From the NCBI GenBank assembly GCA_963843685.1, contig CAWJLO010000006.1, positions 41,680-105,679 of the forward strand: a DNA stretch of 64,000 bases. The letters run 5' to 3'. The notes beneath the pieces were generated by a model. It saw only the letters and a program-made list of their open reading frames with translations, searched no databases and was not told the origin of the DNA. Both the position numbers and the translations under genes were made by a program. Origin of the DNA: an uncultured Chloroflexia bacterium. GTDB lineage: Bacteria > Chloroflexota > Dehalococcoidia > DSTF01 > JACRBR01. This document shows, piece by piece, positions 3,932 to 42,827 of the stretch; the stretch's first letter is position 1; each line of letters opens with the position of its first letter.

Positions 3932-6595
3932 GTGGCACTGCCGAGAGCGATGAGTCGCAGGAAGTTTCTGGCCGGGCTGGCAGGAGTGGCAGGGGTAGGC
4001 GCCGCCGCAGCGACCGGCCTGCTGACGTGGCGTGCCCGTCACCGCCGCGCCGAACCGACGACCGAATCGAAGGAAGGCGGGATCTTCGGCGAGTGGGTCG
4101 ACGCGGACGGGCTCCCCGCGTTTCGTTATACGCTCGACCATCGCACCGACCCACGCGCGGAGTACACGATCAGCGACGGGGTGACGTCGCGACTGAACTG
4201 GCACCATCTCGGTAACGATGCGACCGCGGCGATCGCGACGAACGACGGCTGGGTGCAGCTTTTCGACTTCTCGCACGGGCCGCGCTGGATGAACTACTGG
4301 GACGCGGACGCCGGGCGATACGGCGGCGGGTTCGGATGGGTGCACGAGGACGGCGCGGTGAACCCGACGCTGTTCGTCGACGCGGACCCGCAGGCGTCGT
4401 CGGTCCGAGAGTTCGGCACGGGCTACTACGACACGCGCGTCACGTCGAATGATCTGGAGATCGACCGGCGAGTGACGCTGCCCTTCGGCAACGCCACGTG
4501 GCTGTTGAGCCGCGTGACGATCCGCAACACGTCGGACCGCGCGCGCAGCCTGCGCCACTTCGAGTACTGGGACGTAAACCCGCGTTGGTTGGCCTTCGGC
4601 GTGCCGGAGCAACAGCGCACGGAGGCGGCCAAGGAACTGGAGTACCGTGTCGACGCGTCGGTCGGTAGGCTCACGGCGGTGGAACAGCAGACGGCGGGCG
4701 CGGTGCCGCTACGGACCCTGAAGCTGCCGCAGGTGCCGCCTCAACCGGGGCCTACGCTGTTCCTCGTCCCGTTAGCCGGGACGCGTGTCGACGGATTCGA
4801 CGTCGATCCGACGCGATTCTTCGGGAACGGAGGGCGCGCGGCACCGGACGCCGTCGCCGCCGGCGCCTGCACGGACTCGTCGGAGACGCGACACCCGTGC
4901 TTTGTGTACCAGTCGAACGTCGAACTCGCGGCGCACGGCGAGACGACATTGTGGTTCGCGTACGGCTACACATACGACGCCCTGCCCGACTTCCCGTCGG
5001 ATCCGGCGAGCGGGGAGCAGCGCTCGCTGGACGCCTGGCGGTCGTGGCTGCCCGCGTTCTCCATCAAGGGCGAACCCGGGTTGTGTCGCGAGCTGACGTG
5101 GCACGCGTACTATACGCGCGCGAGCGTCATGTACGATGCGTACTTTGGCAGACGCACGATCCCGCAGGGGTTCTGGTACCTCTACGGCAGCGGGTTCAAC
5201 GCCGGACTGCGCGACTCCGTGCAGCACGCGCTCCCCATGGTGTACTTCGAGCCTGCGCTGGCGAGAGACGTGATGCTCTCCGTGCTAGCGCAGGCGGACA
5301 AGACGGGGCACTTTCCGTACTCCATGACGGGCTACGGCATCGCCTACGACTTCATCTGGATGCCCGGGGACTACGACGTCTGGGCGCTGTGGCTGGCCAG
5401 CGAATACGTGCTCGCGACGCGCGACACGGCGGTGCTGGACCAGCAGCTCGCCTACTACCCCCCGGATGCCGGCGACACGGCTGCGGTCTGGGATCACCTC
5501 ACCCTCGCGTACCGGCACCTGGCCGACGTTGTCGGATTGGGGGCAAGCGGACTGCTGCACGCGCGCAACGCGGACTGGAACGACGGTCTTGTGTTCGAGG
5601 CTTCGCCAAAGGACATTGCCGGGTTCGTGCGCGACGGCGAGTCGACGCTGGCGTCGGCATTCGCCGCGTGGGTGCTGCCGAAATTCGCGAGCGTGGCGCG
5701 GCTGCGCGGCGAAACGGCGTTGGCAGACGAGGTCGACGCGTTCGCGTCAGGCTTGCGCGACAGGTTGAAGACGTACTGGACCGGGAAGTGGCTGGCCCGG
5801 GCGATCCTGCCTGACGGGACGGTGTATGGGACAGACCGCCTGCACCTGGAGCCGCAGCCGTGGGCGATCCTCTCGGGCGTGACGGACGACGCGCAGAGCG
5901 ACACGGTGCTGCGGCAGATCGACACGCTGCTACGAGACGGCTCGCCGCTCGGCGCGGAGATCATGTCAGCGCTGGACGGCACGCAGACGACGGGCGAGTC
6001 GACGGACGGCGGCGTGTGGCTCTCGCTCACGCACACGCTGGTATGGGCGGCTGCGCAGCGAAACCCCGCCATGGCGTGGGACGAGTTCATGCGGAACACG
6101 CTGCGCAACCACGCGACGGTCTACCCGGACGTGTGGGTGGGGGTGTGGAGCGGGCCGGACGCCTACAACAGCCCACGGTCGTCGCGGCCCGGGTGGACAT
6201 GGGACCTGCCGGCTCTCAACGTATTCGGACAGTCGTGGCCGATCCAGAACGTGCACACACACTCGCAGCCGCTGCTTTCGTTCCTTCGCCTCGCCGGCGT
6301 CGAACCGACCGAGAGCGGCGTACGCATCGCGCCCGTATTCCCGTTCAGCGAGTGGAGCCTGACGTCACCGGCGTTCGGCATCGAGTACGCGGCAGACTCC
6401 GTCTCCGGACACATGAGCGCGGCCGGCGACAGCATCGAGCTCCAGGTACGTCTACCGGGCGCGCTCGCGGGCGGCGACGTGCGCGTCACCGGCTCCGCGG
6501 CGATGGTCGACCACGAACCGCAGGGCGCAGACGTCGTGATCCGCATGCGCGGGCCATCGGGCGGCCGCTGGGAGTGGCGCGTCGACCGGGCGTAA
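3932..6595 (+). CDS. Tat-secreted large glycoside-hydrolase-like protein, (alpha/alpha)6-barrel type (GH63/GH65/GH116-like); exact family unresolved
   Basis: 887 aa; N-terminus MSRRKFLAGLAGVAGVGAAAA has the S-R-R-x-F-L twin-arginine motif. The central/C-terminal region (e.g. HARNADWNDGL, LGAEIMSALDG) resembles six-hairpin glycosidases. Start may be GTG 3932 or ATG 3950. Confidence 0.55.
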   Translation: MALPRAMSRRKFLAGLAGVAGVGAAAATGLLTWRARHRRAEPTTESKEGGIFGEWVDADGLPAFRYTLDHRTDPRAEYTISDGVTSRLNWHHLGNDATAAIATNDGWVQLFDFSHGPRWMNYWDADAGRYGGGFGWVHEDGAVNPTLFVDADPQASSVREFGTGYYDTRVTSNDLEIDRRVTLPFGNATWLLSRVTIRNTSDRARSLRHFEYWDVNPRWLAFGVPEQQRTEAAKELEYRVDASVGRLTAVEQQTAGAVPLRTLKLPQVPPQPGPTLFLVPLAGTRVDGFDVDPTRFFGNGGRAAPDAVAAGACTDSSETRHPCFVYQSNVELAAHGETTLWFAYGYTYDALPDFPSDPASGEQRSLDAWRSWLPAFSIKGEPGLCRELTWHAYYTRASVMYDAYFGRRTIPQGFWYLYGSGFNAGLRDSVQHALPMVYFEPALARDVMLSVLAQADKTGHFPYSMTGYGIAYDFIWMPGDYDVWALWLASEYVLATRDTAVLDQQLAYYPPDAGDTAAVWDHLTLAYRHLADVVGLGASGLLHARNADWNDGLVFEASPKDIAGFVRDGESTLASAFAAWVLPKFASVARLRGETALADEVDAFASGLRDRLKTYWTGKWLARAILPDGTVYGTDRLHLEPQPWAILSGVTDDAQSDTVLRQIDTLLRDGSPLGAEIMSALDGTQTTGESTDGGVWLSLTHTLVWAAAQRNPAMAWDEFMRNTLRNHATVYPDVWVGVWSGPDAYNSPRSSRPGWTWDLPALNVFGQSWPIQNVHTHSQPLLSFLRLAGVEPTESGVRIAPVFPFSEWSLTSPAFGIEYAADSVSGHMSAAGDSIELQVRLPGALAGGDVRVTGSAAMVDHEPQGADVVIRMRGPSGGRWEWRVDRA

Positions 6596-9959: not shown

Positions 9960-10694
9960 CTACGGCGTCGGCGTGGGCGCGCTTTGCGGCGGCCCTGAGA
10001 AAGCGCCCGGGTTGTCGAGCAGGCGGTCAAGCCCCGACTCGAACGCCGTCTCCTGCTGCGTCGAGTCGTCCTGCGTGATCGTGCCCGCCGTGACGGCGTC
10101 GGCGAGTCGCTTCTTGTTCGCGTCGATCAGCGCCTGCCGGAAGGCGGCGCGCGCCTGCCCGTGCGCCGCGGCGACCGCCTCAAGCGTCGCCCCCTGCGCC
10201 TGCAACTCGGTACGGAGCTGATCTTCCGTGATGCCGAGCACTGTCGCTGCAAGGGTGAGCGTCTGCCCGAACCCGGCTCCCCCGACGCCCCGTCCGCCGA
10301 AGCCGCCGCGGCCGATGGGCGTGCCTTCCGCTATGGCTGTTTGTTGGTCAGGCGACGGCGTGCGAGCGCCGAACGCCGGGCGAGTGCCTTCCGCGATCGC
10401 CGTCTCGAAATCCGGGTTCGGCGTGCCTCCGAAGGCGAACGGCGTTCCCTCCGCGATCGACGTCTGGATCGCGGGATCGGGCGTGCGGTTGCGGAAGCCA
10501 CGCGCGCTGCCGCTCGTGTTCGGCGCGCCAGCCGTTGCGGCGGCCGTCGGTGACTTCGATGCCGCGGATGTGCCGGAGCCACACGCCGCACCGAGCGCCG
10601 CAACGGCGATGAGGCCGACCGCGGCGACGGCCACCGGAAGGCGGGACGGGAGATGAAGCGACTTCACGGGTACTCTCTCTTCACTGAGTCGCAC
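9960..10694 (-). CDS. lipoprotein with three tandem ~21-aa repeats (hypothetical)
   Basis: Signal/lipobox ...AVAAVGLIAVAALGAAC-GSG. Three repeats follow: IQTSIAEGTPFAFGGTPNPD / FETAIAEGTRPAFGARTPSPD / QQTAIAEGTPIGRGGFGG. Then a helical C-terminal part. Start codon uncertain. Confidence 0.5.
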   Translation of the reverse strand: MRLSEERVPVKSLHLPSRLPVAVAAVGLIAVAALGAACGSGTSAASKSPTAAATAGAPNTSGSARGFRNRTPDPAIQTSIAEGTPFAFGGTPNPDFETAIAEGTRPAFGARTPSPDQQTAIAEGTPIGRGGFGGRGVGGAGFGQTLTLAATVLGITEDQLRTELQAQGATLEAVAAAHGQARAAFRQALIDANKKRLADAVTAGTITQDDSTQQETAFESGLDRLLDNPGAFSGPPQSAPTPTP

Positions 10695-10821
10695 GAATGC
10701 TGTCTCAGCTTACGGAGGGTGCACCCGAGAAGTATTGCCAGACGGTAACAGGCGGGCAGTTTGAGTCAGCGACGTTGGAGACATCTAACAGCATCATTGG
10801 AGCGCACGCGCCCCGGATGCC

Positions 10822-12006
10822 TCAGCCGATAACGCCACGCTCCCGCAGACCGCTGACGGATGCCGCATCGAACCCAAGCGACGCCAGCACGTCGTCCGTG
10901 TGCTGCCCGGCGACCGGCGCCGTGGACCGCACCTTCCCCGGCGTGTCGGAGAGCTTGGTGCCGATGCCGAGGTGCCGGACCTTCCCCAGCGTCGGGTGAT
11001 CGACCTCCACGACCATGTCGCGAGCGAGGTTGTGCGGGTCGCGCAACGCCTCCTCGAGCGAGTAGACGGGGCCGGCGCAGATGTCGGACTGCTTCAGGAT
11101 CTCGAACCACTCGTCGCGCGTCTTCGTCGAGAACTGCTCGCGGAAGAACGCCGCGATCTCCTCACGCTTCGATGCGTCGTACTGGTGCGGGATGAAGTCT
11201 TCGCACCCCATGGTCTTGCAGAGGTTGACGAAGAAGTGCGGTTCCAGGCTGCCGATGCTGATCCAGCCGCCGTCCTTGCACTGGTAGACGTTGTAGTGCG
11301 GCACGGAACCGTTCAGCAGCGTCGCACCGCGCGAGGGCGAGGCGCCGCCCATGAGCACGTTGCCGGCCATGCTGGCGAGCAGGTAGAGCACGCCGTCCGA
11401 CATCGCGATATCGACGTACTGGCCGCGCCCCGTGCGCTCCCGCGCCATCAGCGCCGCCAGAATGCCGAACGCGGCGTGCATGCCGCCGCCCGCGAAGTCG
11501 GCGATGATGTTCATCGGGATCGCCGGCGGCGTATCCGGCCAGCCGATCATGCCGAGCGCGCCGCCGACCGAGATGTAGTTGATGTCGTGCCCGACGAGCT
11601 GGCTGTACGGTCCCGTCTGGCCGAAGCCGGAAAGGGAGCAATACACGAGCCGCGGGTTCCGCTCCTTGAGCGTGTCGTAGTCGACCTGCAGCCGCTTGAC
11701 CACGCCGGGCCGGAACCCCTCCAGCACAACGTCGGCCGTCTCGGCCAGCTTGTAGAAGATCTCGCGCGCCTCCTGCTCCCGCAGGTTGAGCACGATGCTG
11801 CGCTTGTTGCGGCTCATGATGTTGTATGCGGCCAGCTTCTCCATGTCCTGCTGACGGCTGCCGGCGAAGGCGGGCGCCAGCTTGCCGTCGGCCGGCGCCT
11901 CCACGAGGAGCACGTCCGCGCCCATGTCGCCCAGCATCATCGAGCAGAACGGCCCCGGCGCCAGACGCGAGAGGTCGAGAATCTTGATCCCTTCGAGCGG
12001 CAGCAT
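10822..12006 (-). CDS. CoA-transferase family III (CaiB/BaiF/alpha-methylacyl-CoA racemase-like)
   Basis: 394 aa; MLPLEGIKILDLSRLAPGPFCSMMLGDMGADV...catalytic Asp region ...SDGVLYLL; typical family III length and architecture. Confidence 0.85.
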   Translation of the reverse strand: MLPLEGIKILDLSRLAPGPFCSMMLGDMGADVLLVEAPADGKLAPAFAGSRQQDMEKLAAYNIMSRNKRSIVLNLREQEAREIFYKLAETADVVLEGFRPGVVKRLQVDYDTLKERNPRLVYCSLSGFGQTGPYSQLVGHDINYISVGGALGMIGWPDTPPAIPMNIIADFAGGGMHAAFGILAALMARERTGRGQYVDIAMSDGVLYLLASMAGNVLMGGASPSRGATLLNGSVPHYNVYQCKDGGWISIGSLEPHFFVNLCKTMGCEDFIPHQYDASKREEIAAFFREQFSTKTRDEWFEILKQSDICAGPVYSLEEALRDPHNLARDMVVEVDHPTLGKVRHLGIGTKLSDTPGKVRSTAPVAGQHTDDVLASLGFDAASVSGLRERGVIG

Positions 12007-12089
12007 GTCAGTCCCTTTCGTCAGCGCTGAGTCCGGATGGAAGGGTGTCGGCTCGCGGCGCTTCGATCAAGGAGCAGGCTCCGCCGCGG

Positions 12090-13376
12090 TCACACGAACG
12101 GCCCTGCGAGAGTCAACACCAGCAGTACGAGCGAGAGCGAGATCACCACGGCCGCGGTTGCGATGCCGATCACGTTGAACGCCGGCGTGTTGACCCGGTC
12201 TCCCATCAACCCGCGGTCGTTGGTGAGGCGCAGCAGGCTGAACAACACCACCGGCAGTACGAGCGCGTCGATCACCTGGATCAGCAGCAGCGTACGCGTG
12301 AACGGGATGCCGGGGAGCAGCGCCAGCCCCATCGAGAGGACGATGATCCCGGTAAAGAGACCCATGAACACCGGCGCGCGCCGAAAGTCCTGCGACACGC
12401 CCTTCTCGACCCCGAGCGCCTCGGTGACGCTGTACGCGCTCGTCAGCGCCAGCACCGGCGCCGCCAGCAGGCACGCCCCCAGCAGCCCAACCGCGAACAG
12501 GTACTCGGATGCGGACCCGGCCACCGGCTCCAGCGCCTGCGCCGCCTGCGCCGCCGTATCGACACCAACCCCCTGACTGAACAGCGTCGCCGCCGTCGCG
12601 ACGATGATCGACACGGCGACAACGTTGGCGAGGAGCGAGCCCACGGCCACGTCCGCCTGCTCGTACACATAGTCCTCCGGCCGGACGGCCTTCTCGGCCA
12701 CGCTGGACGTGAGGTAGAGCTGCATGTAGGGCGTGATCGTGGTCCCGATGATGGCGATGATCAGCTGCACGCCGCTCGCCGAGTGGGGCACCGTCGGTAC
12801 CGCGAGCCCGTGGGCGACGGAGCCCCAGGCCGGATGCGATAGCACTGCGGCGACCGGATAGGCGACGAACACCAGCGCCATCAGCAGGAACGTCCGCTCG
12901 ACCATCTTGTAGGAACCGAAGACGACCAGCGTCCAGAGCAGCACCGCCGCGACCGGCACGGCGATCAATCGCGAAACGTGAAGCAGCTCGGCCGCCGCAC
13001 CGATACCCACAAACTCCGAAAACGCCGTGCCCAGGTTGGCAACCAGCAGCGCTGAGACGACGAACGTCGTCATGCGGATGCCGAAGTGCTCGCGCACGAG
13101 GTCCGAGAACCCCATCCCGGTCACCGCGCCCAGCCGCGCGCACATCTCCTGCACGACGATCAGTGCCACGAGGATGACGATCACCACCCACAGAAGCTGG
13201 TAGCCGTAGCGGGCCCCCGCCGCGGAGTACGTGGCGATGCCGCCGACGTCGTTGCCCGCGTTGGCTGCGATCAGGCCGGGGCCGATAACGCCTAGGAGGA
13301 GGAAGAGGCGGGGAAATCGGCGCGCGAGCGCACGCGACCGCGGCTGCTGTGCAGGGCGCGGGTCAGCATGCTCCAA
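12090..13376 (-). CDS. NRAMP/SLC11-family transporter with non-canonical metal site (NRMT-like, putative Mg2+ transporter)
   Basis: 428 aa, about 11 TM segments. TM1 GPGLIAANAGNDVGGIATYSAAGARYGYQLLWVV aligns without gaps to the canonical [34 protein letters not shown], so DPGN becomes DVGG (Asn->Gly). TM6 IIGTTITPYMQLYLTSS aligns to the canonical LIGATVMPHVIYLHSAL (Met->Thr, His->Tyr, His->Thr). Confidence 0.8.
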   Translation of the reverse strand: MEHADPRPAQQPRSRALARRFPRLFLLLGVIGPGLIAANAGNDVGGIATYSAAGARYGYQLLWVVIVILVALIVVQEMCARLGAVTGMGFSDLVREHFGIRMTTFVVSALLVANLGTAFSEFVGIGAAAELLHVSRLIAVPVAAVLLWTLVVFGSYKMVERTFLLMALVFVAYPVAAVLSHPAWGSVAHGLAVPTVPHSASGVQLIIAIIGTTITPYMQLYLTSSVAEKAVRPEDYVYEQADVAVGSLLANVVAVSIIVATAATLFSQGVGVDTAAQAAQALEPVAGSASEYLFAVGLLGACLLAAPVLALTSAYSVTEALGVEKGVSQDFRRAPVFMGLFTGIIVLSMGLALLPGIPFTRTLLLIQVIDALVLPVVLFSLLRLTNDRGLMGDRVNTPAFNVIGIATAAVVISLSLVLLVLTLAGPFV

Positions 13377-13426
13377 CCCTTGCTGCGCTCGTACGTCCGG
13401 AATGACTATCGCCCATCACTTTCGCG

Positions 13427-14773
13427 TCAGCCGCCAAACCCCCGGCTGCGCCCCCGTCTCCACGAACCCTTCAACACGACGTCGAGAACGTCGTCGACGG
13501 TCACCGCGCCCAGGAAGCGCTGCTCCTCGTCGACGACGGGGATGGCCAGAAGATTATATTCCGCAATCTTCTCCGCGACCTCTTGCGGCTCGTCGTCGGG
13601 CGCCGCGGTCACGGGCTCGCGCGTCATCACCTCGCTCACGCCCGCGGTTGAGGCGGCGATCAGCACCTGCCGCATGCTCAGCACCCCCACCAGCCGGGCC
13701 TGCTCGTCCAGCACGAAGAAGTAGTACGCGAAGTCGGGCGCGTCTTCCCGCGTCTGGTACACGTGCAACGCCTCCGCCACCGGGCGGTCGGAGGCGATCG
13801 TCAGCACGTTGGTCGTCATCACACCGCCGGCAGAATCGGGATCGTACTCCAACAGCCGGCGGACGGCTTCGGACTCAGGCGCCTCCATCTCGTCCAGCAG
13901 CTCTTCCGCCCGGACAGCCGGGACCTTCGCCAGCACGTCCGCAGCCTCGTCCGGCTCCATCTCCTCGATCAAGTCCGCGGCCTGCTCCACCGGCATCGCG
14001 CTCAGGAGCTGCGCTTGCTGTTCGGTCGAAAGCTCCTCCAGCGTGTCCGCGGCCTGCTCCTCGTCGAGCGAAGCCAGCACCTCCGCCCCCTCCTGCTTGC
14101 TCAGCTCCGACACAATGCGGGCAAGCTGTTGTGGCCGGAGCTTGCGAAGCTGGAGGTGCCCGACCTTGAGCCGTACCGACGGAGTGTCCGTCATCAGGTA
14201 CTCGACCTCGCGCCAGTCTGTGAGCATGCGGCCGGGAAATCGCGCCCTCATACCGCTCGGGACCAGCCGCCGCAGGATGGCCCGCCCGCCCGTGTCCAGC
14301 GCGACCACGCGATAGCCGTCGTAGCTGCGCGACAGATACAGGTCGTTCACCCGCACCACGCGTGTACCCCGTACGTCGATCACCTGTCGGTCGAGTACGT
14401 CGCCGGCAAGCATCAGCTCCCCGTCGCGACGCTGAAAACGACCGACGTCCAGCGCGTCTGTGTTCAGTCGGACCTCGCCCGGACGGATCGCCGCGACGTG
14501 GTGAATGGGCACGAAGAAGTCCCGCCCGCCCGCCCGGGCGACGAGGCCGGTGAGCGTTGGGTACGCCCCCTCGTTCATCCGCGCGATCACGTCTCGAACG
14601 CGCGCGATCCGCTCGCCCTGCCGCTCCACGACCGGAGAAGCGACGATCTCGGACAGCGCCATCAGCTCGGCGCGGGCGGCAACGGGTGCGGCTTGAGCCA
14701 TCCCAGGTCCCTCCGTGCCGAGGGTAGCCCGGCTGGCTCGGCGCGGGCAACCTTCACGCGACAAGCCGGCCAC
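13427..14773 (-). CDS. soluble PRC-barrel + MgtE N-domain + CBS-pair protein (MgtE cytoplasmic Mg2+-sensor module with no transmembrane pore)
   Basis: 448 aa with no TM segment. The N-terminal ~170 aa has two PRC-barrel-like units (GERIARVRDVI...FFVPIHHVAAIRPGEVRLN; GDVLDRQVIDVRGTRVVRVNDLYL). The MgtE_N helical domain follows (LSKQEGAEVLASLDEEQAADTLEELSTEQQAQLLSAMPVEQAADLIEEMEPDEAADVLAKV...LLEYDPDSAGGVMT). Then comes a CBS pair (...FFVLDEQARLVGVLSMRQVL...LAIPVVDEEQRFLGAVTVDDVLDVV) and the protein ends. It lies 50 nt upstream of the NRAMP gene on the same strand. The start may be M1 (14773) or the internal MAQAAP. Confidence 0.75.
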   Translation of the reverse strand: MAGLSREGCPRRASRATLGTEGPGMAQAAPVAARAELMALSEIVASPVVERQGERIARVRDVIARMNEGAYPTLTGLVARAGGRDFFVPIHHVAAIRPGEVRLNTDALDVGRFQRRDGELMLAGDVLDRQVIDVRGTRVVRVNDLYLSRSYDGYRVVALDTGGRAILRRLVPSGMRARFPGRMLTDWREVEYLMTDTPSVRLKVGHLQLRKLRPQQLARIVSELSKQEGAEVLASLDEEQAADTLEELSTEQQAQLLSAMPVEQAADLIEEMEPDEAADVLAKVPAVRAEELLDEMEAPESEAVRRLLEYDPDSAGGVMTTNVLTIASDRPVAEALHVYQTREDAPDFAYYFFVLDEQARLVGVLSMRQVLIAASTAGVSEVMTREPVTAAPDDEPQEVAEKIAEYNLLAIPVVDEEQRFLGAVTVDDVLDVVLKGSWRRGRSRGFGG

Positions 14774-14822
14774 AGCTCGGGATCAGGCGGCCATTCGCTC
14801 AGAAGCAGGGCAGGGAGGTCGA

Positions 14823-16070
14823 TCAGGCGTCCGGGCCGGGCTCCGACGTCCCGAGCTGGAACGGCGCTTCGCCCTCGGCCAGGAGCTGCGTGCGCGCCTG
14901 CTGCGCCACAGGCAGCCCCCAGATCTTGATGAAACCGACTGCGCTGCCCTGATCGTACTGGTCGCCTCGGTCGTAGGTTGCCAGCGCATAGCTGTACAGG
15001 CTCTTCGGAGACTTCTTCCCGACGGCGACCGCGCGCCCTTTGTGCAGCCGCACGCGTATCGTCCCCGTCACGTGCCGCTGCGTGCTGGCGGCGTACGCGG
15101 CCAGGTCCTGGTGGTGCGGCGTGAACCAGAGGCCGTTGTAGATCACGTCCGCATACTCCTGTCGCAGCGAGTTCTTCGTGCGCAACTGCGGCTTTGAAAG
15201 CGTCAACTGCTCCAGCGCCTCATGCGCGACGTGCAGCGTCCACGCCGCCGGCGCCTCGTAGATCTCGCGCGACTTGATCCCGATCAGCCGGTCTTCAACC
15301 AGGTCGGTTCGCCCGACGCCGTGCTCGCCCGCCCATTCATTCAGCGTCTGTACGAGCGTGACGCCGTCCATCTCGTGCTCGTCCAGACTCACGGGCCGCC
15401 CGCGCACGAATCCGATCTCAACCTCGCGCGGAGCGTCTGGCGCATCCTTCACCGCCCGCGTCCAGGCGTAGATCTCCTCTGGCGGCGCCACCCACGGGTC
15501 TTCCAGCATGCCCGCCTCGATGCTGCGGCCCCAGAGGTTCTCGTCCGTGCTGTACGGGCTCGCCTTCGTCGCCGGCACCGGCACGTTGCGCGCCGCCGCC
15601 CACTCGATCTGCTCCTCGCGGCTCATCCGGTGCTCTCGTACCGGAGCGACGATCTCCAGATCGGGCGCCAGCGCCTGCGTGCTGACGTCGAAGCGCACCT
15701 GGTCATTCCCCTTACCGGTGCAGCCGTGAGCGATCGCGCTGGCGCCCTCCTCGCGCGCTACGTCGACGAGCATCTTGGCGATCAGCGGCCGCCCGATTGC
15801 GGTCGCCAGCAGATACTGACCCTCGTACACCGCACCCGACATCAGCGCCGGGAAGGCGAAGTAGTCGATGAACGGCTGCTTGCCGTCGCGGACGATCGCC
15901 TTGAGAGCGCCGATCTCCATCGCGCGCTTCTCGACGGTCTGGAGGTCCTTCTCGTTGCCGAGGTCGATCGTCAGCGCGATCACGTCGAACCCGCGCTCCT
16001 CTTTGAGCCAGCGGATAGCAACCGACGTATCGAGTCCGCCGGAGTAGGCGAGGACGACCTTCTTGGCCAT
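14823..16070 (-). CDS. argG: argininosuccinate synthase
   Basis: MAKKVVLAYSGGLDTSVAIRWLKEE...AHGCTGKGNDQVRFD... The start is taken at MAKK (ATG 16070, with GAGGTG 8 nt upstream) rather than the ORF-track 16079. Confidence 0.9.
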   Translation of the reverse strand: MAKKVVLAYSGGLDTSVAIRWLKEERGFDVIALTIDLGNEKDLQTVEKRAMEIGALKAIVRDGKQPFIDYFAFPALMSGAVYEGQYLLATAIGRPLIAKMLVDVAREEGASAIAHGCTGKGNDQVRFDVSTQALAPDLEIVAPVREHRMSREEQIEWAAARNVPVPATKASPYSTDENLWGRSIEAGMLEDPWVAPPEEIYAWTRAVKDAPDAPREVEIGFVRGRPVSLDEHEMDGVTLVQTLNEWAGEHGVGRTDLVEDRLIGIKSREIYEAPAAWTLHVAHEALEQLTLSKPQLRTKNSLRQEYADVIYNGLWFTPHHQDLAAYAASTQRHVTGTIRVRLHKGRAVAVGKKSPKSLYSYALATYDRGDQYDQGSAVGFIKIWGLPVAQQARTQLLAEGEAPFQLGTSEPGPDA

Positions 16071-16152
16071 GACGGGCACCTCATGAGTCGCAGGGAGTTG
16101 GCAGCGGGATGATTCGTCTTTGTACGTGAAAGGCGGTAGCGGTGCAAACGCG

Positions 16153-17428
16153 CTACGGGTCGAGCGAGTTCATCACCAGCCCGGTCGGCAGCTTGGGGTA
16201 GAAGTACGTCGACTTCTGCGGCATGCGCCCGCCGGCGTCCGCGACCGCCATCACCTGCTCGACGGGCGTCGCGTTGAGGAGGAAAGCCGCCTGTGCGCCC
16301 CCTCGGGCGACGGTCGCCGCCGCTTCCGCGGCGTCCTGCGTGTACGTCACGGCTTCGCCGCCGGCCAGCGCCGCGTCATCGATGCCAAACGCCGGGGCGA
16401 GGATGCCGTACTGCAGCACACTCACGTCCAACCGCCGCCATGCTCCAGGCTGGCCGGCCGGCATCGCCGCGTCGACACCTGCGCGGTCGCGGAGCGTCAC
16501 CATGCGCGCCCCGTCCGGAGCCAACACCCCGAAACGCGTCTCGCGCCGATCGCCCTCGGCGAGGGCGGCGAGGACCTCCCCTCCCTGCATCGGTTCGACG
16601 TCGAACCACCGCTCGATTGCGTGCCACACAGCCGGCGTCAGCCTGCGGTGCACGAGCCGGTGCGTCGGCAGCACGAGCAGCCCCGGATCGCTGGCGTCGG
16701 TCAGCGCCATCAGCACGAAGTTCTCGGGCTCCTCCCCGGTCCAGGAAGGGGCCGATGCCCGCACTTCGTTCCGATACGTCAGTGCGGTCTCGTACCGGTG
16801 GTGGCCATCGGCGATGTACACGTCCGATCGCCGCGAGAACGTCGGCGAATGCCGCGACTCGCTTCGAATCGTCGACCGCCGAGACGACATGCCGCTGCCG
16901 GTCGGCCTCGAAGTCATAGAGCGCGCGGCCGACGAGCTTCGGCATTCTGTCGGCGCCCTGTGGCCGGTACAGGCAGTACACCGGGCTCACCTGTGTGCGC
17001 GTCGCGCGCAGCAGCTCCAGACGGTCAGCCTTGGGCCCGGAGAGCGTGTGCTCGTGCGGCTTGATGACTCCCTTCTCCCACTCCTCCAGCCGTGCGACGC
17101 AGAACACGGTGTCGCGGGAGTACGGCTGACCGGCCCACACGAACTCCTGTTTGTAGGTGTAGACCGATGGTGCTGCGTCACGCATCAGCACGCCCGCATC
17201 CCGCCAGCCCGCGAGGTCTGAGGCGGCGCGCGTGTAGCGGTTGTCGGCGGCGGTGTCGCCGCCACGTGTCTCGCCGTACTCCAGGCGCACGACGTTGTGC
17301 GGGCTGCGCCCGTACAGCGCCGCCTGCTGCTGCGGCGAGATCACATCGTATGGTGGTGCGATTGCGGCGGCGGGGTCGACGCGCGCCGCGTCGTAACGAA
17401 GCGCGCGGAACGGGCGGACGTCGGCCAT
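16153..17428 (-). CDS. DUF1015 family protein, interrupted by an apparent frameshift near 16880-16900
   Basis: N-terminal frame (start ATG 17428): MADVRPFRALRYDAARVDPAAAIAPPYDVISPQQQAALYGRSPHNVVRLEY... C-terminal frame (16153..16917): ...SDVYIADGHHRYETALTYRNEV...AFLLNATPVEQVMAVADAGGRMPQKSTYFYPKLPTGLVMNSLD, where YIADGHHR is the DUF1015 hallmark. The two frames overlap and the combined length (~425 aa) fits the family. The ORF track's 100-aa N-extension (17429..17728) is Arg-rich and rejected. Confidence 0.65.
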
Positions 17429-17511
17429 GCGGGAGTATAGGCGGCGCGCTCTCAATCGCGGTAGGACGCCGGTCTGGGGCGTAGCCACGGACGCCCGTAT
17501 AGTGTCGGTCA

Positions 17512-17841
17512 ATGTCGTTTTACTGCGTCTTCTGCGAGATCGTCGCGCACAGAGAACCGGCCCAGATCCTCCACGAAGATGATGACGTCGTGGTATTCCG
17601 CAACCGGCTGAACTGGGTACCGGTGATGCTGCTCGCCGTGCCGCGCCAGCACCTGTCGCAGGGCGAGCTATGGACGTCAGACATGATGGCGAAGGTCTCG
17701 AAAGTGGCCGCCGAAATGGGGGCGGCACACTGCCCCAACGGCTTTCGACTGCTCAGCAACTTCGGCTCCGACGCGATGCAGAGTCAGGCGCACGGACACG
17801 TGCACATCCTCGGCGGCACCTACTTGGGCGAGTACGCGTAG
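17512..17841 (+). CDS. HIT family protein (histidine triad hydrolase)
   Basis: 109 aa; CVFCEI..., LAVPRQHL, and the histidine triad HGHVHILGG. Confidence 0.8.
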   Translation: MSFYCVFCEIVAHREPAQILHEDDDVVVFRNRLNWVPVMLLAVPRQHLSQGELWTSDMMAKVSKVAAEMGAAHCPNGFRLLSNFGSDAMQSQAHGHVHILGGTYLGEYA

Positions 17842-17845
17842 CGAG

Positions 17846-18581
17846 CTAGATCTCGATGCCGAGGCCCGCGAGCGCGGCCGTCTGCGTCTCGTTGAGCTGC
17901 CGGATGCCGGCGGCGCCCAGATCGACGATGCGGTCCATCATCGCCCGGTCGAACGGCTGTCCCTCGGCCGTGCCCTGAAGCTCCACAAAGCGCCCGTCGT
18001 CCGTCATCACGACGTTGAAATCAACTTCGGCCGAAGAGTCCTCCGGGTAGTCCAGGTCCAGCACCGGCTGGCCCTCGACGATGCCGACGCTCACCGCGCC
18101 GACGAGCCCCGACATCGGCAGCGAACCGACGATGCCGTCCTTCACGAGCCGGTTGAGCGCCTGCGCCAGCGCCACGCAAGATCCGGTGATCGACGCCGTG
18201 CGCGTGCCGCCGTCCGCCCGGATGACGTCGCAATCGACGATGAAGTTGCGCTCACCGAGCAGGTCGAGGTTCGTGACGCTGCGGAGCGCCCGCCCGATCA
18301 GCCGCTGGATCTCCTGGGAGCGGCCGCTCTGCCGTCCGCGCGAGGCCTCGCGCTCCGTGCGCGTGTTCGTCGAGCGCGGGCAGCATGCCGTACTCCGCCG
18401 TCACCCAGCCGCCGCCCGTGCCGCGCAGGAACGCAGGCACGCGGTCCTCCATGCTCACGGTGCAGAGCACCCAGGTGTTGCCGAACTTCACCATTGCCGA
18501 GCCCTCCGCGTGGTCGAGGAAGTTCGGCTCAATCGTCACGGGCCGCATCTGGTCCGGACTGCGTCCGTCGTGTCGGGCCAA
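17846..18581 (-). CDS. rph: ribonuclease PH, with an apparent single-base frameshift at ~18378-18380
   Basis: N-frame (18252..18581): [56 protein letters not shown], then nonsense. Shifting by one base at ...ctgcc[c]gcgctcg... continues perfectly as [81 protein letters not shown]...(17846..18175 frame)...[20 protein letters not shown]. Confidence 0.8.
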
Positions 18582-41342: not shown

Positions 41343-42827
41343 TCAGGCGAAGATGTTGGTCGCGCGCTGCGCCGCTTCGATCAGCGGGATCGGGTACACG
41401 CCGAACGTCAGCACGCCGAGACCGGCGAGCACCAACAGGCCCTCGGTGAGGATCGGCGTGCGGAGCGCGGGCTCCCCCTCCGCCTCACTCAGGTACATCT
41501 GCCGCGCCACGCCGAGGTAGTAGAAAGCGGACACGGCCGTATTCAGCACGGCGATGACCACCAGCCACACCAGGTCCGCCTGGACGGCCGCATTGAAGAT
41601 GTAGATCTTTGCGATGAACCCCGCCGTCGGCGGCAGTCCGGTCAGCGACAGCAGGCAGAAGAGCAGCACCGCCGCCGGGATCGGCGCACGTCGGCCCATG
41701 CCCGCGTAATCGGCGATCTCGTCGCTCCCCGTGCGCGCGCCGATGGCCATCACGGCGAAGAAGGCGCCCAGGTTCGTGAACGCGTACGTCGCGAGGAACA
41801 GCACGACGCCGCTGGCCCCCGGCAGCGAGCCGCCGTCCGTGATGTACGTGACCGCCGCGAGCCCGACGAGGAAGTTGCCCGCCTGCGCGATCGAGCTGTA
41901 ACCCAGCATGCGGCGGATGTTCGTCTGTCGCAGCGCCATCACGTTCCCGACCGTCATCGACACCGCGGCCAGCACCGCGAACAGCATCTTCCAGTCGTTG
42001 CCCACGAACGTGTGCGGGCCGAACCCCTCGAAGAAGATCCGCATCACCACGGCAAACGCCGCCGCCTTGCTGCCGACCGAGAGGAACGCCGCGACCGGCG
42101 CCGGCGCGCCCTGGTACACGTCCGGCGTCCACATCTGGAACGGCACGATCGCCATCTTGAAGCCGAAGCCCGCCGCCATGAACACCATGCTGAAGATCAG
42201 CGCCGAGCGGATGCCGCTGTCGCCGGACGCGATCGTCGACGCGATGCTCGGCGAGCCGTCGGTGCTGATCAGGTGCGTAGTGCCGGCGATGCCGAAGAGG
42301 AACGCCATGCCGTACAGGATCACGGCCGACGCGACCGCCCCGAGCAGCAGGTACTTCAGCGCGGCCTCGCTGCCCTGGTCGTCACGCAGGAAGCCGGCAA
42401 GGATGAACTGCGTGATGCTCGTCAACTCCAGCGAGACGAAGATCGTGACGAGGTCGCGTGCGCCGGACAGCAGCATCATGCCCGACGTGGCGATCAGCAT
42501 CAGCGCGAAGAACTCGCCCTGCCGCGGGCCGAACTTGTCGGTGTAGTCGAGCGAGGCGAGGATCACGGAGCCGGACACGCCGATGAAGAGGAACGTGAAG
42601 AAGATGCTGAAGTTGTCGAGCGCCATCGTGTCGTCGTAGAACGACGCCTGCCGGTCGCGCAGTATCAGGATGACGAGCCACAACGCCGCCGCGCCCAGTC
42701 CGGCGATCGCGACGCCCGCCAGCCATTTCTTTCGGTCGCTAGGCGTCGCCAGGTCGCCGATCAGCACGAGGCCGGCCGTGACCATGACGGCGACGATCGG
42801 CCCCAGGCGGTCGAGGTCTGCCAGCAT
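41343..42827 (-). CDS. nuoN: NADH-quinone oxidoreductase subunit N
   Basis: The start is taken at MLADLDRLGPIVAVMV (ATG 42827, overlapping the nuoM TGA by 1 nt; TGATG). The ORF-track N-extension to 43019 is Arg-rich. 494 aa, a NuoN-type antiporter-like subunit. Confidence 0.85.
   Translation of the reverse strand: MLADLDRLGPIVAVMVTAGLVLIGDLATPSDRKKWLAGVAIAGLGAAALWLVILILRDRQASFYDDTMALDNFSIFFTFLFIGVSGSVILASLDYTDKFGPRQGEFFALMLIATSGMMLLSGARDLVTIFVSLELTSITQFILAGFLRDDQGSEAALKYLLLGAVASAVILYGMAFLFGIAGTTHLISTDGSPSIASTIASGDSGIRSALIFSMVFMAAGFGFKMAIVPFQMWTPDVYQGAPAPVAAFLSVGSKAAAFAVVMRIFFEGFGPHTFVGNDWKMLFAVLAAVSMTVGNVMALRQTNIRRMLGYSSIAQAGNFLVGLAAVTYITDGGSLPGASGVVLFLATYAFTNLGAFFAVMAIGARTGSDEIADYAGMGRRAPIPAAVLLFCLLSLTGLPPTAGFIAKIYIFNAAVQADLVWLVVIAVLNTAVSAFYYLGVARQMYLSEAEGEPALRTPILTEGLLVLAGLGVLTFGVYPIPLIEAAQRATNIFA

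Follow-up and report, generated by a model that had tools for sequence, protein, structure and literature searches.

An NRMT-clade transporter gene and a gene for a pore-less MgtE-like protein form a conserved pair in a Chloroflexota genome: a candidate Mg2+-sensing partner

NRMTs, built on the SLC11/NRAMP fold, constitute the fourth class of Mg2+ importers in bacteria. We know of no explanation of how an uncoupled Mg2+ carrier is restrained. The 64,000-nucleotide stretch of DNA considered here (the window; positions 41,680 to 105,679 of contig CAWJLO010000006.1, assembly GCA_963843685.1, from an uncultured Chloroflexia bacterium) encodes an NRMT-clade transporter and, just upstream on the same strand, a soluble protein that resembles the cytoplasmic part of the MgtE channel and has no pore; we call this protein the partner. 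The original prediction for this locus took the pairing to be undescribed, but it had already been reported by Shin et al. (2014, PLoS Genet, PMC4072509), who found that most NrmT genes adjoin one that encodes the cytoplasmic domain of MgtE and proposed feedback regulation.

Two further systems frame the comparison. EleNRMT from Eggerthella lenta carries both Mg2+ and Mn2+ with no proton coupling, and it transports alone in liposomes, needing no partner (Ramanadane et al. 2022, PMC8806188). The NRMT signature given in that work is DxxG in helix 1 and TxxA/T in helix 6, replacing DxxN and A/CxxM. The MgtE channel closes when Mg2+ binds between its N and CBS domains (PMC5882242). The elements of the window pair that correspond to these systems are as follows.

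12090-13376, minus strand: gene for an NRMT-clade SLC11/NRAMP-fold transporter, 428 amino acids, TTG start (Pfam Nramp, 7qia alignment)
13239-13250, minus strand: metal-site motif of transmembrane helix 1 (TM1), D43-V-G-G46 (DxxG; canonical NRAMP DxxN), aligned to EleNRMT D55/G58
12732-12743, minus strand: metal-site motif of TM6, T212-T-I-T215 (TxxT; canonical NRAMP A/CxxM), aligned to EleNRMT
13377-13426, minus strand: intergenic spacer of 50 nucleotides (nt), partner stop to NRMT start
13427-14701, minus strand: partner gene, 424 amino acids, a soluble PRC / PRC-like / MgtE_N / CBS-pair protein, ATG at 14701
14456-14665, minus strand: PRC-barrel unit 1 of the partner, residues 13-82 (Pfam PRC, PF05239)
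14192-14419, minus strand: second, degenerate PRC-like beta unit, residues about 95-170
13835-14140, minus strand: MgtE_N helical domain, residues 188-289, with D219, D251 and D255 (Pfam and 2yvy alignment)
13472-13825, minus strand: CBS pair, residues about 293-410, with D404, D407 and N383 (Pfam)
13430-13471, minus strand: basic/aromatic C-terminal tail S-W414-R-R-G-R-S-R-G-F422-G-G, replacing the MgtE plug helix and pore

By every sequence measure applied, the transporter is a member of the NRMT clade, as had been predicted. The Pfam Nramp profile (PF01566) matches it at E 1.1e-87 over positions 1-356 of 357, which describes a full-length LeuT-type core. In a search of all PDB sequences its best relative is EleNRMT (7qia), with an ungapped alignment of residues 22-425 and E 3e-99, whereas MntH-type SLC11 chains reach only about 1e-28 to 1e-31 (best 2.8e-31). 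The window protein's score with the NCBIfam MntH model, 170 bits, is below the cutoff of 430.

The metal site carries the substitutions expected of the clade. TM1 reads N-D43-V-G-G46, with Gly in place of the Asn of the canonical DPGN, and TM6 reads G-T212-T-I-T215-P-Y217, with Thr in place of Met and Tyr217 in place of the first TM6b His; these changes had all been recognized in the original prediction. Its reading of the second His as Thr depends on the alignment, the position being Leu222 in the ungapped EleNRMT register or Thr223 in the gapped HMMER alignment to 10ky. Neither residue is able to carry a proton, and both TM6b His residues are lost. The Asp and Gly of the TM1 motif are invariant in our transporter alignment (A1), and in a wider comparison DxxG is present in 82 of 84 relatives, with DxxA in the other 2, while TxxA/T/S occupies TM6 in all 84. 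T212 corresponds to EleNRMT T224, whose mutation abolished Mg2+ transport (PMC8806188), and the position is invariant. Q367 (EleNRMT Q379) and E121 (EleNRMT E133) are conserved as well. By analogy with EleNRMT and CabNRMT, the window protein would transport Mg2+, and also Mn2+, independently of H+.

One peculiarity of the TM1 motif is Val in its second position (DVGG, 13239-13250), which the window protein alone has among 84 NRMT sequences; the others have DAGG, DSGG, DASG or DAGA.

The TTG start of the transporter gene is the first canonical start past an in-frame TGA (13418-13416), and use of the next in-frame start would cut away part of TM1. Many close relatives (P0142-P0194) have public gene calls of 365 amino acids that begin at the equivalent of V64 and lack TM1 and DxxG, probably because the real start is a TTG that automated annotation misses. 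The usual labels for these proteins also mislead, the transporter being called "Mn2+/Fe2+ NRAMP" or "MntH" and the partner "magnesium transporter" or "CBS domain protein".

The partner was originally described as a 448-residue soluble protein that has MgtE_N and a CBS pair but lacks a pore. This domain content holds and the length does not. The 448-residue open reading frame (ORF) is GTG-initiated and spans 13427-14773. Nearly all homologues have 424 residues, and the in-frame ATG at 14701 is preceded, at a distance of 8 nt, by GGAGG; together these place the true start at this ATG and mark the longer frame as over-extended. Pfam profiles for MgtE_N (E 7e-24), two CBS domains (E 3.5e-22) and PRC (E 1.2e-8) all match. 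The TIGR00400 mgtE model aligns only through its positions 26-252 of 450 and gives 159 bits, short of its cutoff of 233, and just 15 residues follow the second CBS domain. As the match is restricted to the cytosolic half, the partner has no transmembrane pore and is not an MgtE channel. Residues 185-409 align by phmmer with the cytosolic domain of Thermus thermophilus MgtE (TtMgtE, 2yvy) at E 3e-34, and an AlphaFold2 model (mean predicted local distance difference test score 85) superposes on 2yvy with a Foldseek TM-score of 0.80, normalized to the target.

The region ahead of MgtE_N was predicted to hold two PRC-barrel-like units. The first has both a PRC-barrel fold and the PF05239 profile match. 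The second is degenerate: the two units align in register with hhalign, at a probability of just 12%, so that a pair of PRC-barrels is supported only in part. The structural neighbors of the N-terminal region are archaeal CdpB1/CdpB2, the C-domain of RimM and the reaction-centre H subunit, all PRC-barrel proteins that bind other proteins. We assign the identities of both transporter and partner with high confidence.

The partner and NRMT genes form a conserved unit. A scan with an NRMT alignment, covering a single genome from each GTDB species, gave 80 loci whose transporters are 43-78% identical to that of the window. We searched six-frame ORFs from these loci with separate hidden Markov models (HMMs) for the N-terminal region and for the MgtE_N and CBS region of the partner. 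Among the 77 loci with at least 1.5 kb of upstream flank, a partner was found on the same strand within 4 kb in 67 (~87%), lying directly upstream of the NRMT gene in 56, directly downstream in 3 and upstream but non-adjacent in 8. All 64 loci that matched the N-terminal HMM matched the MgtE_N and CBS HMM too; the partners in the three loci matching only the latter run off the end of the fetched sequence, and every full-length partner in the census has the PRC-like N-terminal region. The hosts are Chloroflexota, Acidobacteriota, Desulfobacterota, Actinomycetota, one Rhodanobacteraceae genome and one Peregrinibacteria genome. Reverse look-ups agree, with an Nramp gene following the partner homologue in 4/4 cases (homologues 42-46% identical to the window partner). 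Even beside Eggerthellaceae proteins 91-92% identical to the crystallized EleNRMT construct, a 450-residue PRC, MgtE_N and CBS gene ends 4 nt upstream. Spacers in related loci range from overlap to about 300 nt. In the window the gap is exactly 50 nt, as predicted.

Additional genes accompany the pair in some loci. A glycosyltransferase-like gene (PF13524) lies between partner and NRMT in a metagenome-assembled genome (MAG) of Rhodanobacteraceae (L057, 2868-3950) and in Terriglobus roseus (L059, 3012-4061). Directly after NRMT, L001 (8970-10430) and L041 (5272-6783) encode what Pfam matches indicate to be an MscS-like channel with a C-terminal cyclic-nucleotide-binding domain; the same gene is presumed, from ORF position and size, in L025 (5377-6843) and L028 (5434-6891). 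In this group, made up of L001 and several Acidobacteriota loci, the channel may belong to the module as its third component. One Chloroflexota MAG (L076) has a partner-type gene on each side of NRMT (1486-2889 and 4229-5593).

The MgtE ligand list (PMC5882242) was mapped onto the partner, and conservation was assessed over 112 partner homologues, as follows.

TtMgtE E59 (site Mg7), partner D219: acidic in 111/112
TtMgtE D91 (Mg4), partner D251: acidic in 108/112
TtMgtE D95 (Mg6), partner D255: invariant Asp
TtMgtE D247 (Mg4), partner D404: invariant Asp
TtMgtE D250 (Mg5), partner D407: acidic in 109/112
TtMgtE D226 (Mg5), partner N383: Asn in 102/112

Five of the six Mg4-Mg7 ligand positions have stayed acidic throughout the family, and their conservation leads us to infer that the partner probably binds Mg2+. 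The alignment with MgtE stops at partner residue 409 (TtMgtE 252), short of the plug-helix ligands E258 and D259. What follows in the partner is the basic tail, with W414 and F422 unchanged throughout alignment A3 and R415 almost so; the family pattern is SWRxRxxRxF, and the tails of divergent homologues read SWRxRLxRxF.

Some operons of this kind are themselves under Mg2+ control. In two Desulfobacterota, Pelotalea chapellei (L055, 2457-2622, 131 bits) and a Deltaproteobacteria MAG (L061, 2365-2551, 126 bits), the partner gene is immediately preceded by a full-length M-box Mg2+ riboswitch, which agrees with the operons of Shin et al., many of them controlled by an M-box and others without one (PMC4072509). 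Given these latter members, an M-box is not obligatory for the pair. The NRMTs of the two M-box loci have the TTIAPW variant of TM6, as does EleNRMT; the window, which has no riboswitch, has TTITPY.

With moderate confidence we favor an explanation in which an NRMT and a pore-less MgtE-like protein make up a two-gene module of known type, the partner acting as an Mg2+-sensing brake on the transporter. The enlarged metal site (DxxG, TxxT, no relay His) would, on the precedent of EleNRMT, admit largely hydrated Mg2+, and Mn2+ also, with no H+ coupling. The partner would serve as a cytosolic divalent-cation sensor, most plausibly for Mg2+, that closes up when Mg2+ is plentiful. Once closed, it would dock on the cytoplasmic face of the transporter through its PRC units, its basic tail or both, and the docked partner would throttle uptake. 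This would provide the negative feedback that is otherwise missing in an uncoupled, potential-driven carrier, and it makes the partner the obvious candidate for keeping NRMT in check.

A regulatory rather than catalytic role is suggested because EleNRMT works alone, because CabNRMT rescued Mg2+ transport without a partner (PMC4072509) and because addition of the Acidobacterium capsulatum partner, Acp2976, brought no better rescue. Contact between partner and transporter and a negative direction of regulation are proposed from the NRMT-type site, the largely intact MgtE ligands, the linkage over several phyla, the Mg2+ riboswitches of some lineages and the known behavior of EleNRMT and MgtE. 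It is possible, at a little under even chances, that the partner gates the NRMT directly in trans, by analogy with the gating of MgtE. More tentative by a small step is a stable heteromeric "split" transporter, in which the MgtE sensor would dock by its PRC-barrels and/or tail on a LeuT-fold carrier and gate it according to cytosolic Mg2+, perhaps also ATP.

Several observations weigh against a Mg2+-sensing brake. In the only published test of a partner, in which the A. capsulatum pair was co-expressed in Bacillus subtilis, Acp2976 alone gave no growth rescue and, added to the transporter, gave no better rescue (PMC4072509). The partner lacks Mg2 and Mg3, the sites by which MgtE links sensing to its pore, and the Mg5 ligand D226 is Asn family-wide in the partners. 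No M-box or other Rfam family was detected up to E 1 in 10000-18000 of the window, and no M-box was detected in the other 21 loci scanned, among them Chloroflexota, Acidobacteriota and Eggerthellaceae. The "TTI(T/S)PY" subgroup that holds the window transporter has no assayed member. Finally, the A. capsulatum transporter rescued a Mn2+ defect fully and Mg2+ transport only partly (PMC4072509), and the DxxG/TxxT site of the window protein recurs in Acidobacteriaceae relatives, so the signature does not settle Mg2+ versus Mn2+.

This last point leads to the strongest alternative, that the module is mainly for uptake of Mn2+ or another divalent cation and that the partner senses Mn2+, not Mg2+. 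Shin et al. themselves suggested a Mn2+-responsive partner (PMC4072509), and EleNRMT moves Mn2+ in addition to Mg2+; the window's lack of an M-box fits too. The original statement that the clade moves Mg2+ rather than transition metals was too strong, given that EleNRMT moves both (PMC8806188) and that the A. capsulatum member mainly rescued a defect in Mn2+ transport (PMC4072509). We nevertheless regard a Mn2+ module as unlikely, since T212 is invariant and its EleNRMT equivalent T224 is needed specifically for Mg2+, the ligands of MgtE Mg2+ sites are kept in the partner, and a Mg2+ riboswitch precedes some operons of the same architecture.

A less probable alternative accepts a partner that responds to Mg2+ or nucleotides through its CBS domains and supposes that it acts elsewhere through its PRC-barrels, being merely co-expressed with the transporter for Mg2+ homeostasis. 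CBS pairs often bind adenine nucleotides, and the MgtE-ATP entry 5x9g is among the partner's top matches. The protein-binding character of its N-terminal structural neighbors is compatible with another target, as is the transport-dependent rescue that co-expression left unchanged (PMC4072509). Weighed against this is very tight linkage that holds across several phyla, the two genes often overlapping or separated by a short spacer, a pattern typical of subunits or direct partners. Moreover, we know the MgtE module otherwise only as a gate fused to its transporter.

It is very unlikely that the partner is instead a metal chaperone or buffer taking the cation at the cytoplasmic exit of the transporter. 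Free Mg2+ in cells is millimolar and requires no chaperone. Shin et al. put this role forward as their alternative (PMC4072509), and the partner does have several conserved acidic clusters, but the MgtE sites are low-affinity and switch-like (PMC5882242) and the transporters function without the partner (PMC4072509; PMC8806188). Lastly, an ordinary proton-coupled MntH with substitutions that are artefacts of alignment can be dismissed as having next to no likelihood: although the NCBIfam MntH and Nramp models do match the transporter, the MntH score lies far below its cutoff, the EleNRMT alignment is ungapped and DxxG/TxxT is invariant.

The genes around the pair do not appear to belong to the module. 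The ORF list and Pfam give a head-to-tail order on the minus strand of argG, partner, transporter and CoA-transferase, as originally predicted, with the two flanking genes placed as follows.

14823-16079, minus strand: argG, flanking the pair on the same strand
10822-12006, minus strand: family III CoA-transferase, flanking the pair on the same strand

Both adjoin the pair in the three closest relatives only, which identifies the pair as the conserved unit and rules out argG and CoA-transferase as members; the closest relatives of the window locus are MAGs. A scan of 11800-16300 for sigma-70 promoters and intrinsic terminators found no promoter-like site and a single terminator-like match, which sits within the partner coding sequence and is not above chance; the spacer at 13377-13426 has neither kind of site. 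The partner and NRMT genes are probably co-transcribed.

Two genes further upstream appear broken. The RNase PH gene (rph, 17846-18581, minus strand) has a single frameshift near 18380, its first ~66 residues being in one frame and the remainder in the next, and is either a pseudogene or the product of an assembly indel error. A DUF1015-like gene, identified from reading the sequence alone (16153-17728, minus strand), is apparently split into two overlapping ORFs of 450 and 254 amino acids; out-of-frame sequence rich in Arg and Ala forms the end of the first ORF and the start of the second. That both are broken within 2.5 kb suggests indel errors.

In comparison with the operons of Shin et al., Ca_c0685 of Clostridium acetobutylicum and Acp2976/Acp2977 of A. 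capsulatum, the window has the same transporter clade and the same gene order, with the MgtE-domain gene immediately ahead of the transporter gene, and the same regulatory hypothesis applies (PMC4072509). It differs in having no M-box and in having its partner as one 424-residue gene, whereas the C. acetobutylicum partner is split. In the paper of Shin et al. the partner is described as a "small" MgtE fragment, with no mention of a PRC-like N-terminal region of roughly 180 residues (PMC4072509). EleNRMT and the window transporter are 45% identical over their ungapped alignment, with DxxG, the Thr at the T224 position, the Q379 and E133 equivalents and the absence of a proton-relay His in common; in TM6 the window has TTITPY where EleNRMT has TTIAPW, with Thr for Ala and Tyr for Trp. 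EleNRMT was studied without a partner, and its structure paper does not discuss one (PMC8806188).

T. thermophilus MgtE (2yvx, 2yvy, 2zy9) and the partner have the N-domain/CBS fold in common, with acidic residues at the Mg4 (D91/D247), Mg6 (D95), Mg7 (E59) and Mg5 (D250) positions. Unlike MgtE, the partner lacks the plug helix, the five-helix transmembrane pore and the sites Mg1-Mg3 (Mg1 being D432), has Asn for D226, and adds an N-terminal PRC / PRC-like region and a basic C-terminal tail. Because it has no pore of its own, any gating by the partner must act in trans, on an unrelated fold. Compared with other PRC-barrel proteins (CdpB1/CdpB2, RimM, reaction-centre H), it is distinguished by the fusion of the barrel to an MgtE sensor module. 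No paper turned up in a literature search that combined PRC-barrel with MgtE; the partner is not mentioned in Cellier 2022 (SLC11) or in a 2026 review of Mg2+ transporters, and a 2025 preprint on MgtE classification covers only proteins with the transmembrane domain, with nothing on pore-less forms.

The locus is a further example of the known two-gene type, an NrmT/NRMT with a pore-less MgtE-like protein, and the kind of system is unchanged by our analysis. The feedback idea has been in print since 2014, and it is the domain anatomy and the docking elements that would be new: the PRC-like N-terminal region of all full-length partners, the retained Mg4/Mg6/Mg7 ligands and the basic tail that replaces the plug helix may not have been recognized before. 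Together with the ~87% linkage, the PRC-like region, these ligands and the SWRxRxxRxF tail give experiments something to take hold of. If the split transporter is real, one regulatory module would serve two unrelated transporter folds, the MgtE channel and the NRMT carrier, and the arrangement would explain how an uncoupled Mg2+ carrier avoids overloading the cell.

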